Shown: one piece after another, positions 60,471 through 63,667 of the stretch
Position numbering within the stretch: position 1 is the first letter of the stretch
Layout of the letters: every line of letters starts with the position of its first letter
Source: Candidatus Yanofskybacteria bacterium
GTDB lineage: Bacteria; Patescibacteriota; Minisyncoccia; 2-02-FULL-40-12; IGHO2-01-FULL-4-A
Length of the DNA stretch: 64,000 nucleotides
Assembly (NCBI GenBank): GCA_016185545.1
Contig: JACPNJ010000003.1
Location: 2,567 to 66,566 of the forward strand
Reading direction: 5' to 3'
Made by a program: the position numbers and the translations under genes
The notes under the pieces: generated by a model
What the model saw: the letters and a program-made list of their open reading frames with translations, nothing else
The model's database searches: none
What the model was told of the DNA's origin: nothing

Positions 60471-60848
60471 TTAGACGCCAAAGAATGCACCCGTAATCAA
60501 AGCCGCGGCCGTCCTCAATATAACACCTACGCCAAGTACTACTGCCGCACCTATTATACCGTTAAGTATGGCACCCCTGGCTTCTTCTGCTTTTTTAGCA
60601 TCACCGCCGGCAGTCATGTATTTAATGCCACCCCAAATAATGTAAATTACCGCGATTATTATACCGATAAATATCATGAAGTTACCGATTCTTTCAATCA
60701 GGCTTTCGATTCTAGCTATCGTCCAAGGAGAACCAGGACCGATTGGATCCGGAAACGGATCAAGGGCCGGCGCCGCCAAAGACATAAACGGCAACAATAA
60801 TGCAGTTACTGGAGACACAACTTTACCGATTTTCTTTAAATATTTCAT
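60471..60848 (-). CDS. VirB2/TrbC-like pilin-module protein (signal peptide plus hydrophobic helix - AG..M..GG.. - Lys-rich loop - hydrophobic helix)
   Basis: IIIAVIYIIWGGIKYMTAGGDAKKAEEARGAILNGIIGAAVVLGVGVIL; paralogous module in the next three genes. Confidence 0.45.
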   Translation of the reverse strand: MKYLKKIGKVVSPVTALLLPFMSLAAPALDPFPDPIGPGSPWTIARIESLIERIGNFMIFIGIIIAVIYIIWGGIKYMTAGGDAKKAEEARGAILNGIIGAAVVLGVGVILRTAAALITGAFFGV

Positions 60849-61030
60849 AAAACACCTCCTTTACTTGGTTGTTAGTTGCTAGTTTCTGGTTACTAGTTAA
60901 ATTCTGGAAAACCAAAAACTAAAACTTCTCAACATTTTATAAATAAATTCTTTGAATTAAATTCAAGAAATTAGGCGGGTAATTATCTGCTACCATGCTC
61001 GGCTCGCCATGCTCACCTGTGCGTAGACAG

Positions 61031-61408
61031 CTAATTACAGAAAAGGGGAATAAACGAAAAATCTGTTACACCCACCGCGTTGGCAACTGTAGCTATTATA
61101 TAATACACACCCATAATCACCAATAATCCTATCAACACCTGAACGAAATTCTTTTTAGCTGCCTGGAAAGCCGTCGGGTTGCCCCGAGCATGCATGAATC
61201 TGAAACCGGCCAAAATAATGAATATGACCATGATGGGAAAAGCAATACGCGTAAACCAACAGGCAAGACCGGCAATGATATTGAAAAGTCCTTCAACGGT
61301 CAGGTCAATGTCGGGCAAACTTTCCGCATCAGCGGCAAAAACTAAATTTTGCAAAAAATAAAAACTAATAACTGCTAGGACTAGAAAAAATAAAATTCTT
61401 TTTTGCAA
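61031..61408 (-). CDS. VirB2/TrbC-like pilin-module protein, paralogue 2
   Basis: MVIFIILAGFRFMHARGNPTAFQAAKKNFVQVLIGLLVIMGV. Confidence 0.45.
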   Translation of the reverse strand: MQKRILFFLVLAVISFYFLQNLVFAADAESLPDIDLTVEGLFNIIAGLACWFTRIAFPIMVIFIILAGFRFMHARGNPTAFQAAKKNFVQVLIGLLVIMGVYYIIATVANAVGVTDFSFIPLFCN

Positions 61409-61490
61409 AAGGTTACAGGTTACAGGTTACAGGTTACAGGGAAATTTTTCTTACCTGACCCCTGAAACCTGACACCTAAAACCTAAGACT
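61409..61490. repeat. GGTTACAGG heptamer array plus inverted CCTGAAACC array (hairpin; likely terminator)
   Basis: ggttacaggttacaggttacaggttacagg...cctgacccctgaaacctgacacctaaaacc; a near-identical element at 63668-63755 and 3 units in-frame in tsaD. Confidence 0.6.
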
Positions 61491-62472
61491 ATGGATTTCT
61501 CAGACTCAAAATACTCTCTATCAATGTCACAAATCCTTCTCCTATAAATACTATGGCTAATCCGAGGACGGCATACCACAACGCCTTAGCGCCTTTCTGG
61601 AACTTCCCCGGATTGCCACCGGCAGTCAGCATCAAAATACCGGCATAGATAATGACAATAACCGCAATCGGTATCGCCAGATTAAAAATCCAGAGGCCGA
61701 TAACTTTCACAAGTTCTCCAAAGGTATTAATTCCTATCGGATTGGGAAGTTCAATTCCACCGCCGCCCGTACCACCCCCACCAGTTCCTCCGGCACCACC
61801 GGTGGTGCCTCCGCCACCACTGCCCCCCGGTGCTAGCGCCAATTGGCCGCATTGCCTGGCATCGCTTAATCTCAAGCAACTCGTTGGTAATCCGGCACAA
61901 GCACCGCTAGGCACATCGCTGCAGTTTGATAAATTACTGCAGGCATATTTACCATCACCAGCAACGCAAGCAAAGGTCTGGGTTAAAGATTCCAGGAAAT
62001 CAATATTAATGTGGCTGCTTACAACAACGGCAAGGTCATTGCGCTCCACGGGAAATTGCTGATTTTCTGCTCTGGCAAAAGTGTCCAGTTTGGTGCCGTT
62101 GACTGACAACCAAGCGGGATTCGCCAAAACTCTCGCGTGAGTTAGCTCATGAGACGCAAACCTAGTCCCGCCGATACCTACTTTACCTACAGATACCCTG
62201 GACAATGAAAAATAATTTCCATTTGCAAATACCAAAAAATTTATTGAAATATTTTCATCAAGGCACGCGATATCAGCCGAAGAAAGCGTACCCCACTTAA
62301 ATGACGCGCTTAAGATAACTCTACTGCCGGGATTTAATGAAGTGGAATCGGTGGAATAAGTTATAATTCCCTTGCCTATACAATTAACGGCTTGAGCGTT
62401 TTTTGCTGGGATTGCGGCAAACCCAAAACCGACAATTATCAAAACCAGAAAAATTTTATAGAAATTCCCCAT
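61489..62472 (-). CDS. secreted protein: N-terminal beta-rich domain, poly-Gly linker (GGSGGGGTTGGAGGTGGGGTGGGG), C-terminal VirB2/TrbC-like pilin module
   Basis: IAVIVIIYAGILMLTAGGNPGKFQKGAKALWYAVLGLAIVFIG. Confidence 0.45.
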   Translation of the reverse strand: MGNFYKIFLVLIIVGFGFAAIPAKNAQAVNCIGKGIITYSTDSTSLNPGSRVILSASFKWGTLSSADIACLDENISINFLVFANGNYFSLSRVSVGKVGIGGTRFASHELTHARVLANPAWLSVNGTKLDTFARAENQQFPVERNDLAVVVSSHINIDFLESLTQTFACVAGDGKYACSNLSNCSDVPSGACAGLPTSCLRLSDARQCGQLALAPGGSGGGGTTGGAGGTGGGGTGGGGIELPNPIGINTFGELVKVIGLWIFNLAIPIAVIVIIYAGILMLTAGGNPGKFQKGAKALWYAVLGLAIVFIGEGFVTLIESILSLRNP

Positions 62473-62488
62473 TACTTAATTTTACTTC

Positions 62489-63667
62489 TTAAAATTGGCC
62501 ATAGCAATAATTGACTTTGGGGACATAAGCCCTGGTTACCGATAAACTGCCGCTTGCTCTATCGGCATTGCAAACAGTGTGTTCATTGTTATCCCAAAAA
62601 CATTCCCATCTCCTCGTAAATGATTCGCCGGAACAAGCCGAGCATTGACCGCCTTGAGCAGCGGCCGCGGAACCGCAATTCGTACTTTCGGCACAGGCGC
62701 CAAAATCACCGCCATTATAACCGGCGGCAAGTTGGCGAACATCACAACCACACTGGCTGACCAGCTTATCTTTCATATATTCAATAGCCATACATACCTG
62801 GGCCTGGCCATTGGCCGGGTTATTGAGCCAGGCAAAGTCAACAACCGTACCGGCTGAAACGCCGCATTGGGTTTTGTAATTACTGGCTGTTTCCGGCTTA
62901 AGTTGCATCAGGCCAGCCGACTTGCCGTCACTAGCGGTTCTTGGAACGCCGCCTGATTCGTTGGCCATAATTGCTTTAATCAATTTGGTGGTATCTACGC
63001 CAGAACAGATTTGACCGACAGTACCAACTGCGGCGGATATCTGGGCGCTCCACTGGTTTACCGAAGAAATCGAACAATTGGTTGGAGAACTGCCGCAAAT
63101 GTCTAAATCGGTGTCAGAGCAAGTTACACCATTGCAAGTTCCGCCGCCACCGCCGATACCCGTCCCACCGTTTGTGCCCATGCCGGTTCCAGTGCCAGTT
63201 CCGGTGCCGGCAGGGCTGACACAGACAACCTTATTCCAAGGATCCGGCTGATTGTCAAAATAATTACCGGCAATAGATTTGAGAATTGTATTCGTTATCA
63301 TCCAAGCGCCAAAAATCAACAGTAAACCATAACTGGTGGTTTTAAAAATATTTTTACCAGTGGTTATGAGGCCGGGATCGGCTCCTCCCAGAAGAATCAT
63401 GAAACCGGCAATCAAAAACAAGAGCACCGCTATCGCCGGCGTCATAGTGAAAAGCACGAAATTTATAACCCGACTGCCCAAAACCAGCACATCGCAAGTC
63501 GTACAAGTGTCGCTTTCAACAATATCCGTTGTGGCAAGATCGTCTTCCGATTGACCGCATGGTACTAAACCAGCGGCATTGACACTATAAACCGGCTGGA
63601 AAAACAAAAAAGCCGCAAATAGTATTAAGGCGAATATAAAAAAAGTTTTAGATAAACGACCGTTCAA
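62489..63667 (-). CDS. fusion protein: N-terminal pilin-like module, Gly/Thr linker, C-terminal lytic transglycosylase (SLT, VirB1-like) domain
   Basis: N-terminal IAVLLFLIAGFMILLGGADPGLITTGKNIF...; C-terminal AIMANESGG...GLMQL...AAGYNGG (SLT catalytic Glu and AYNAG-like motifs). Confidence 0.55.
   Translation of the reverse strand: MNGRLSKTFFIFALILFAAFLFFQPVYSVNAAGLVPCGQSEDDLATTDIVESDTCTTCDVLVLGSRVINFVLFTMTPAIAVLLFLIAGFMILLGGADPGLITTGKNIFKTTSYGLLLIFGAWMITNTILKSIAGNYFDNQPDPWNKVVCVSPAGTGTGTGTGMGTNGGTGIGGGGGTCNGVTCSDTDLDICGSSPTNCSISSVNQWSAQISAAVGTVGQICSGVDTTKLIKAIMANESGGVPRTASDGKSAGLMQLKPETASNYKTQCGVSAGTVVDFAWLNNPANGQAQVCMAIEYMKDKLVSQCGCDVRQLAAGYNGGDFGACAESTNCGSAAAAQGGQCSACSGESFTRRWECFWDNNEHTVCNADRASGSLSVTRAYVPKVNYCYGQF

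Follow-up and report, generated by a model that had tools for sequence, protein, structure and literature searches.

How do bacteria that depend on a host take material from it? The question concerns the Patescibacteria, a host-dependent group that makes up a large share of bacterial diversity. One locus of Candidatus Yanofskybacteria (Patescibacteria, class Paceibacteria) raises it in a specific form. Near the end of a 64,000-nucleotide stretch of DNA (positions 2,567 to 66,566 of contig JACPNJ010000003.1, assembly GCA_016185545.1; hereafter the window), four consecutive genes, which we call A to D, share a module that resembles the pilins of type IV secretion systems (T4SSs). A preliminary description of the DNA had read them as a cluster of VirB2/TrbC-like pilin proteins, one of them fused to a VirB1-like lytic transglycosylase. 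Do these genes build a pilus, and if so, with which machine?

We propose, with a probability of about 0.55, that the four genes belong to a conserved cassette that is unlinked from virB4 and supplies the pilus or surface subunits of a Patescibacterial T4SS encoded elsewhere. A and/or B would form the core, C would be a minor subunit that bears an adhesin, and D would be a tethered VirB1-like hydrolase. The central idea, that members of the CPR (candidate phyla radiation) carry arrays of T4SS-type pilins, is already published. The gain here is incremental.

Four consecutive genes share one module

The four consecutive minus-strand genes of the preliminary description are all present:

60471-60848, minus strand: gene A, 125 amino acids (aa), ATG start; signal peptide and bare pilin module
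61031-61408, minus strand: gene B, 125 aa, TTG start; signal peptide and bare pilin module
61489-62472, minus strand: gene C, 327 aa; signal peptide, immunoglobulin (Ig)-like ectodomain, Cys-rich segment, poly-Gly linker, pilin module
62489-63667, minus strand: gene D, 392 aa, TTG start; signal peptide, Cys-containing segment, pilin module, Gly/Thr linker, Cys-rich SLT (lytic transglycosylase) domain

The module also has the architecture that had been described. In all four proteins a hydrophobic helix ending in AG(F/I)xxMxxGG(D/N)P is followed by a Lys-containing loop and a second hydrophobic helix. When aligned, the modules are 19-33% identical to one another. A hidden Markov model (HMM) built from A- and B-type orthologues of other genomes, together with A and B themselves, recovers C (E 2e-13) and D (E 2.3e-7), and finds the module in no other open reading frame (ORF) of at least 50 aa at E < 0.06 across the 64 kb. 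Because an HMM made from A and B types only recovers C and D and no other ORF of the window, the fourfold repetition is real, specific and far beyond chance.

A signal-peptide-like N-terminus, hydrophobic and with an AxA-type motif at its end, is common to all four proteins. By hydropathy and sequence, each of them has two strongly hydrophobic stretches with a short Lys-bearing loop between them, and the AlphaFold2 (AF2) models of C and D both show a hairpin of two helices of 32-40 residues. The layout typical of VirB2/TrbC pilins, in which a signal peptide precedes two hydrophobic helices with a short loop between them and the mature part has about 70-100 residues, is thus recognizable in the whole set, by hydropathy and sequence for A and B and by the AF2 hairpins for C and D.

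Public gene calls begin B and D too late. GenBank gives B as 107 aa (HYX20_01650) and one collection gives D as 372 aa, so that signal peptides kept by the orthologues are cut off. In GenBank, A, B and C are named just "hypothetical protein" (HYX20_01645, HYX20_01650 and HYX20_01655), and the protein MBI2669832.1 is identical to C.

The module belongs to the T4SS pilin superfamily

Two Pfam families are relevant for the assignment of the module: PF18895 (T4SS_pilin), with a gathering score of 26.6 bits, and PF04956 (TrbC/VirB2), with a gathering score of 27.9 bits. PF18895 matches A with 39.7, B with 32.5 and C with 28.5 bits, all above gathering, and D with 22.4 bits, below it. The relatives of D score higher. 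A PF18895 match at E <= 0.001 is found in 23 of 28 members of the D family (best E 2.2e-10), an SLT match in 26 of the 28, and the D-type orthologues at two other loci (L018 and L019, see below) reach 33.2 and 27.0 bits. Hence the placement of the module in the T4SS pilin superfamily stands, with PF18895 above gathering for A, B and C, whereas the TrbC/VirB2 family in the strict sense stays below its cut-off. As judged from these profiles, the module is a member of PF18895 and of the VirB2/TrbC superfamily, not of the strict TrbC/VirB2 family, and A to D appear to be four anciently diverged paralogues of this module.

Gene A has the best match to pilin families among the four, and is our candidate for the major subunit. 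Of its 499 homologues, most match both PF18895 and PF04956 in precomputed annotations, and the source databases (NCBI, JGI) label some of them "TrbC/VirB2 family protein", "pilin" or "type IV secretory pathway VirB2 component". A tblastn search of 72,556 plasmids found no relatives of A. The NCBIfam model NF045849 (Mbov_0395 family) is matched weakly by A and B over nearly its whole length (18.8 bits against a cut-off of 40, E about 1e-3).

The genes also form a Patescibacterial VirB2 array as defined in a recent survey (Quinonero-Coronel et al. 2025, PMC12102498): at least two PF18895/PF04956 genes of low mutual identity, in tandem or with one non-pilin gene between them. Here four such genes are consecutive.

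Pilins of type IV pili (T4P), a different kind of filament, were considered and rejected. The proteins A to D lack the class III motif G|F(T/S)LIE, have two helices and Sec-type signal peptides, and do not match any T4P family in Pfam.

Two of the modules are fused to other domains

In C and D the module is only one part of the protein:

61498-61722, minus strand: pilin module of C, residues 251-325 (AF2 hairpin, PF18895)
61933-62370, minus strand: ectodomain of C, residues 35-180 (Ig-like beta-sandwich, AF2)
62492-63130, minus strand: SLT domain of D, residues 180-392 (Pfam, AF2, Foldseek)
63260-63499, minus strand: pilin module of D, residues 57-136 (AF2 hairpin)

The AF2 model of C (predicted local distance difference test, pLDDT, 69.1) consists of the beta-sandwich (35-180), a Cys-rich piece, a disordered Gly linker (215-245) and the helical hairpin (251-325). 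This agrees with the earlier placing of the module at the C-terminus, after a beta-rich domain and a poly-Gly linker. Foldseek relates the beta-sandwich to generic Ig-like folds (nanobodies, NPC2, RhoGDI, CARDB). Among 25 C-type homologues the pilin module is nearly invariant, and the ectodomain varies. Such a pattern fits a module constrained by packing or assembly and a variable part that faces the host.

The model of D is more confident (mean pLDDT 82.6, from an alignment of 28 sequences). Two helices of about 40 residues each (57-96 and 98-136) are followed by a disordered Gly/Thr linker (152-173) and a very confident C-terminal domain (180-392). That an SLT-type lytic transglycosylase is fused to the module is borne out by Pfam (PF01464, 45.1 bits) and by Foldseek, which relates the C-terminal domain to MltE, MltF, MltC and Slt70 at probability 1.0 and also to goose-type lysozymes. 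A profile of the D family, compared to the PDB, finds MltE at E 2.3e-5 with the catalytic ES motif aligned, and the best NCBIfam match of D is EmtA (E 8e-6). The ES, GLMQ and AYNGG motifs are present as had been noted. Across 28 homologues there is no variation at E237 (of ANESGG), Q255, Y317 and N318, nor at a set of cysteines. D contains 20 cysteines, mostly conserved, and ends in a Cys-rich extension of about 70 residues. The catalytic domain of D is thus intact, and we predict that it is catalytically competent.

The logic of a pilin plus a wall-cutting enzyme holds, with a PF18895 module and a genuine SLT domain in one protein. The closer analogy to VirB2 and VirB1 stands in part: the SLT fold and the catalytic Glu are there, but the domain is nearer to MltE/EmtA than to VirB1, and the gene lies outside a T4SS operon. 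Its only T4SS-related neighbors are the pilin genes.

How general is this fusion? At most loci the D slot holds the module and an SLT domain, and at two others (L005 and L018) it holds the module, He_PIG Ig domains and an SLT domain. A further locus, L004 (9959-11707, Ca. Yanofskybacteria RIFCSPHIGHO2_01_FULL_44_17), has the module, fn3 and a VanY-like D-Ala-D-Ala carboxypeptidase domain (21.8 bits, below threshold) in this slot and no SLT domain. Judging from these domain contents, the constant trait of the D slot appears to be a peptidoglycan-active domain tethered by a pilin module, which suggests selection for a tethered wall hydrolase. When the D-family profile was used for an exhaustive HMMER search, 340 cluster representatives were recovered at E <= 1e-30, and in about 70 of the best 150 matches one stretch covers both the module and the SLT domain. 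At weaker thresholds the counts become far larger, mostly through matches to just the SLT domain.

The cassette has a fixed order and begins with a solute-binding protein

Directly upstream of D, the window ends inside another gene:

63752-64000, minus strand: 3' end of a solute-binding protein (SBP) gene, the last ~82 codons and the stop codon; the remainder lies beyond the window end

The complete gene was recovered from two other assemblies, L001 (27-1355) and L002, which are identical to the window over 1512 nt. The SBP has 442 aa, matches the Pfam families SBP_bac_1 and SBP_bac_8 and carries an N-terminal transmembrane (TM) anchor. Its relatives in the PDB are MalE-type and other sugar SBPs, the closest of which bind maltose/trehalose-type sugars. 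No gene for a permease or ATPase of the ATP-binding cassette (ABC) type was found in the cassette, in the window or near the SBP gene.

The order SBP-D-C-B-A is found in the window and in 10 further places, from related genomes and metagenomes (L003-L008 and L016-L019; six of these loci were established by BLAST and HMM, L016-L019 by Pfam gene tables). The wider order is (gyrA - methyltransferase) - SBP - D-type - C-type - B-type - A-type - (VanW) - HSP20 - PrsW - tRNA synthetase - TsaD. In the six loci compared by BLAST and HMM the four pilin slots are each filled by a separate orthologue, without change of order, and the Pfam tables of the other four agree. B-type orthologues in L003-L005, for example, are 63-79% identical to B. 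Because every slot keeps its own orthologue in a constant order, the roles of D, C, B and A are probably distinct and non-redundant.

The SBP gene stands immediately upstream of the D-type gene in the window and in 10 of the 10 further places, with gaps of -4 to +141 nt. Some loci show an overlap of 1-4 nt between the two genes. L016 has another upstream flank, and even there the SBP gene immediately precedes the D-type gene. The region under study corresponds to the distal four-fifths of a cassette, SBP-D-C-B-A, that is conserved on the chromosome.

At six loci an additional gene, for a protein of about 220 aa, stands between the D-type and the C-type gene (L003 3714-4349, L004 11704-12357, L005 11454-12074, L006 11239-11925, L017 2444-3082, L018 11770-12441). 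It is absent from the window, where the gap between D and C is 16 nt. The protein has a signal peptide, a beta domain, a cysteine knot (CNDDGxC...CPxDC) and a C-terminal TM anchor, and does not belong to any Pfam family.

Hairpins may divide the cassette into three segments

The junctions of the cassette carry several signals:

60412-60439, minus strand: intrinsic terminator after A (12-bp perfect GC-rich stem with 8 GC pairs, T-run; fold z -4.25)
60855-60861, minus strand: Shine-Dalgarno sequence AAGGAGG, placed 6 nt ahead of the start codon (ATG) of A; no other canonical one occurs in the cassette
61410-61484, minus strand: heptamer-repeat hairpin 2 at the C/B junction (-35.6 kcal/mol, z -5.4; 0 of 200 shuffles as stable)
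63676-63754, minus strand: heptamer-repeat hairpin 1 at the SBP/D junction (-31.8 kcal/mol, z -2.6), overlapping the SBP stop codon
L008 9926-9992 and 12562-12690, and L016 9868-9995: junction hairpins in relatives, of unrelated sequence

The two hairpins of the window are about 80 nt long, periodically bulged and made of GGTTACA/TGAAACC heptamers, and the copies are 92% identical. The heptamer pattern has 14 matches, compared to 0.22 expected, and includes (GGTTACA)4 at 61411-61438 within the C/B hairpin. The intergenic hairpin arrays of the preliminary description are therefore real, although they occur at two junctions only, upstream of D and upstream of B. The gap between B and A (182 nt) is free of the heptamer repeat. 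After each hairpin a U-run holds the TTG start of the next gene (D or B).

Long hairpins recur in relatives, at both junctions in L008 and at the SBP/D junction in L016 (z -4.0 to -5.4), and the A-type gene of L008 is followed by an equivalent terminator. We infer that the hairpins are attenuators or RNA-processing or RNA-stabilizing elements, which split one transcription unit into SBP, D-C and B-A. Together with the terminator after A, they would probably set the relative transcript levels of these three segments. Alternatively, they could be elements of the repetitive extragenic palindromic (REP) kind. Phase variation by heptamer copy number was considered and rejected: L001, L002 and L010, independent assemblies from the same population, show the same repeat wherever they overlap.

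The sequence (GGTTACA)4 also occurs at 52492-52519 on the plus strand, in frame within TsaD (51864-53000), where it encodes ...LQVTGYRLQ.... Relatives have a shorter, variable loop at this site, and there is no hairpin fold (z -0.6).

How the cassette could work with a distant T4SS

In the proposed mechanism the Sec pathway would insert A to D into the membrane with the loop in the cytoplasm. Given a cleaved signal peptide and a Lys loop on the inside, which the positive-inside rule and the known VirB2 topology would predict, the module should point outward with both of its ends. The two fusion partners, N-terminal in C (the ectodomain) and C-terminal in D (the enzyme), would then both be extracytoplasmic. 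A and/or B would be extracted from the membrane and polymerized into a T4SS-type pilus or a short stalk. The polymerizing machine would be the monoderm-type VirB4 T4SS, for which most Patescibacteria have genes at another chromosomal site. C would be added as a minor subunit and display the variable Ig-like adhesin. The module of D would place the peptidoglycan hydrolase at the assembly site, where it would open the symbiont's own wall, a VirB1-like job. That the hydrolase acts on this wall rather than on that of the host is the more plausible option, because the host, Methanothrix, has no murein. The cassette as a whole would thus be the extracellular, host-facing part of the Patescibacterial T4SS.

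The preliminary description went further and suggested an envelope-spanning conduit. For this cassette such a role is speculation; a 2025 review likewise speculates that the pilus is a conduit for uptake from the host.

Where is the machine? The preliminary description had proposed to look for VirB4-, VirB6- or VirD4-like genes beyond the window end, and this expectation failed. The next gene is the SBP gene, and no such genes were found within about 10 kb upstream in the syntenic relatives. On pTi, by contrast, virB1, virB2, virB3 and virB4 lie together. Locus L004 is informative in this respect. Its 20 kb hold no VirB4, and the genome that carries it is listed as VirB4-positive in Table S1 of the survey (PMC12102498). 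In this relative the cassette is therefore unlinked from virB4, and does not come from a genome without a T4SS; for the genome of the window the same is presumably true. The same survey places the pilins apart from virB4 in about 40% of the assemblies that are VirB4-positive.

Several observations weigh against our proposal. Among the scanned window ORFs of at least 120 aa (all but a few that overlap larger genes on the opposite strand) no relatives of VirB4, VirD4, VirB6 or VirB3 were found, and at the 10 further places the flanks, covered to about 10 kb on both sides, likewise show no recognizable T4SS ATPase, VirB3 or VirB6 gene. The similarity to classical VirB2 is weak. PF04956 gives 24.5 bits for A, 24.6 bits for B (E 3e-5), 10.3 bits for C and no match for D, all under the cut-off. 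In hhalign, the A/B-type alignment matches four annotated VirB2/TrbC proteins of Agrobacterium, Sinorhizobium and Acetobacter, whose genes were taken from Ti-type and related plasmids, with a probability of 21% (E 0.001, 36 columns); the matched columns run from the last part of helix 1 through the loop into helix 2 and keep the expected register. Compared to all PDB sequences, a profile made from the four modules does not find a solved structure, even at E 10. The SLT domain of D matches Agrobacterium VirB1 only marginally in BLASTP (E 0.079) and is closer to the housekeeping enzyme MltE. A VirB2-type helical filament could not have ectodomains like those of C and D, with 150-250 residues, on each of its subunits, and in the literature no filament is reported for Patescibacterial VirB2-like proteins. 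Finally, the constant linkage to the SBP gene is not accounted for by a T4SS model.

Could the module be an anchor, or the cassette a scavenging device?

An alternative, which we regard as clearly less likely than the T4SS pilus but the most serious of its competitors, is a surface-display set that works without a T4SS. The module would have been co-opted as an anchor or a hetero-oligomeric platform for SLT, VanY-like, Ig-like, He_PIG and fn3 domains, with neither a pilus nor VirB4. The missing ATPase near the cassette at every locus, the many different ectodomains that are fused to the module, and the position beside housekeeping genes (gyrA, a valyl/isoleucyl-type tRNA synthetase, TsaD) instead of in a mobile or secretion island all agree with display. 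Yet A and B consist of the module alone and have nothing to anchor, and the module is more conserved than a mere anchor would need. Moreover, it is homologous to T4SS pilins, which in other Patescibacteria lie mostly beside virB4 and are essential together with the T4SS where this was tested.

The SBP suggests another explanation, centered on glycan scavenging. D would free (anhydro)muropeptides or glycans from the wall of the host or from its own, the SBP would capture them for import, and the pilins would be a scaffold that spans the wall. This would make sense of an SBP of the oligosaccharide/MalE type that precedes the D-type gene everywhere, even with a different flank (L016), and of the peptidoglycan-active domain that always occupies the D slot. 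We nevertheless find it improbable. The cassette and the window lack genes for an ABC permease or ATPase, the closest relatives of the SBP bind sugars of the maltose/trehalose type and not muropeptides, and in the window a terminator-like hairpin separates the SBP gene from D. Furthermore, the known hosts of Yanofskybacteria are Methanothrix archaea, which are without murein.

A further reading sees more in the cassette than spare pilins. SBP-D-C-B-A would then be a self-contained envelope apparatus of the Paceibacteria, in which a VirB2-type stalk, served by a distant T4SS or by no dedicated ATPase at all, brings a variable Ig-like adhesin and a wall hydrolase to the interface between the cells, the SBP captures the released glycans and the hairpins tune the stoichiometry. 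We give this version little credence. If it were true, a filament derived from a T4SS would be tied directly to nutrient acquisition from the host.

A remnant of a phage or mobile-element lysis module, with two-TM holin-like proteins and an SLT endolysin, is effectively excluded: small two-helix membrane proteins do adjoin a muralytic enzyme, the SLT part of D does match endolysin and tail-lysin families of phages in PHROGs, and a LAGLIDADG endonuclease gene lies directly downstream, but the modules of A, B and C have no PHROG matches, 2.9 million viral contigs contain no relatives, all four proteins have predicted cleavable signal peptides, divergent genomes share the same chromosomal synteny, and no phage structural or integrase genes adjoin the cassette.

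Genomic surroundings

The window is chromosomal. It contains rpoB, rpoC, rRNA genes with insertions, a LOOT RNA and genes for a ClpB-like protein, IF3, TsaD, a class I tRNA synthetase, PrsW, HSP20 and VanW. Further features are listed here by position:

14378-22508, minus strand: region that holds the 23S rRNA match, which covers 5.2 kb for a 2.9-kb model and hence has about 2.3 kb of insertions
15582-16193 and 16566-17174: LAGLIDADG_2 ORFs between the 23S match and the 5S gene
26064-31055, minus strand: ORF of 1663 aa
36710-39813, minus strand: aromatic amino acid lyase beside an AMP-binding (CoA-ligase-type) enzyme, an unusual metabolism for a reduced genome
40950-41073, plus strand: LOOT RNA
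42236-43534, plus strand: ORF of 432 aa
43893-45446, plus strand: large serine recombinase of 517 aa, beside tRNA nucleotidyltransferase and tRNA-Arg genes
58002-58565, minus strand: bitopic Pro/Thr-rich protein of 187 aa
58565-59407, minus strand: second gene of an overlapping pair
59552-59636, minus strand: tRNA-Leu(tag)
59613-60266, minus strand: LAGLIDADG_3 homing-endonuclease-like ORF of 217 aa, directly after the cassette

The ORFs of 1663 and 432 aa are the only large proteins of the window without a Pfam or NCBIfam family. There is a small residual chance that one of them is a very divergent secretion component.

Two overlapping genes for membrane or secreted proteins (58002-58565 and 58565-59407) are found between the cassette and VanW; one of them encodes a 280-aa Gly-zipper protein that is conserved in L003 and L004. 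The 187-aa protein has an NCBIfam match to IcmG/DotF, which we judged to be a chance or compositional hit (18.6 bits compared to a cut-off of 200). The LAGLIDADG_3 ORF is free-standing, with a near-consensus promoter to itself (60301-60273), and shares 24 nt at its 3' end with the tRNA-Leu gene. At the distant locus L017 a LAGLIDADG_3 gene (4707-5351) is found in the same position after the cassette.

Comparison with known systems

Arrays of divergent pilins have been described in Patescibacteria before. The T4SS cluster of Southlakia, a Saccharibacterium, holds a series of predicted pilins that are essential (Wang et al. 2023, PMC10633639); in this species, the one that was tested, both the Patescibacterial T4SS and its VirB2-like pilins are essential. 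With PF18895 and PF04956, the survey found VirB2-like pilins in 1,948 VirB4-positive assemblies, in 1,135 of them near virB4, and 441 arrays of 2-11 pilin genes with a mean identity of about 25% in 383 Patescibacterial assemblies (PMC12102498). These arrays are most abundant in Microgenomatia and Saccharimonadia, and most genomes with VirB2 are without a recognizable VirB1 (PMC12102498). We found no mention of pilin-hydrolase (pilin-SLT) fusions in that paper. In Paceibacteria that parasitize methanogens, the genes of unknown function with the highest expression include T4SS pilins, and for Yanofskybacteria the host is listed as Methanothrix (Kuroda et al. 2024, PMC10936435). In the literature we found no description of the fixed order SBP-D-C-B-A, of a slot for a pilin-tethered peptidoglycan hydrolase (at least 340 protein clusters) or of long heptamer-repeat hairpins at these gene junctions, and no paper that ties pilins to a solute-binding protein in Paceibacteria.

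What does the cassette add to this picture? It shows that the pilins of Yanofskybacteria and related Paceibacteria form a fixed unit of four slots, which is unlinked from virB4. The pilin-hydrolase family could account for the VirB1 that is missing from the published survey. The cassette also links pilins to a sugar-type binding protein. Three testable handles follow: the activity of the D ectodomain, the ligand of the SBP and which of A and B polymerizes.

The closest known systems are the Patescibacterial VirB2 arrays themselves, that is, SEML1_0006-0019 of Southlakia epibionticum and the arrays of the survey (PMC12102498). Like these, the cassette consists of tandem divergent paralogues of PF18895/PF04956 (19-33% identity here, 25% on average there), and it sits in a monoderm, host-dependent CPR bacterium outside any relaxase context. 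Unlike these, it lies outside the T4SS cluster, has a fixed order with slot-specific orthologues, always has an SBP gene upstream, and fills two of its slots with fusions, Ig-like plus pilin and pilin plus peptidoglycan hydrolase.

The other comparisons concern single genes. A and B resemble VirB2 of Agrobacterium (121 aa) in size, signal peptide, two hydrophobic helices and short loop, but the similarity is weak, the organism is a monoderm, and virB3 and virB4 do not follow. Proteins of the Mbov_0395 family from integrative and conjugative elements of Mycoplasma (NF045849) are, like A and B, small two-helix proteins of a monoderm, and they are associated with a T4SS; A and B score far below the cut-off of that family (18.8 vs 40 bits) and are not members.

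D is comparable to VirB1-type transglycosylases and to the wall hydrolases TraG (pIP501) and PrgK (pCF10) of Gram-positive T4SSs. It has the SLT motifs ES...GLMQ...AYNGG, pilin genes adjoin its gene, and its membrane tethering recalls the N-terminal TM anchor of TraG and PrgK. The anchor of D, however, is a complete pilin module and not a single TM helix, the protein has no CHAP domain, and its gene lies outside a T4SS operon. The best solved match of D, by fold and by profile and with the catalytic Glu aligned, is MltE (EmtA) of Escherichia coli, a membrane-bound lytic transglycosylase of the endo type. MltE is an outer-membrane lipoprotein of a diderm, whereas D is anchored by a pilin module and has 20 cysteines and a Cys-rich extension.

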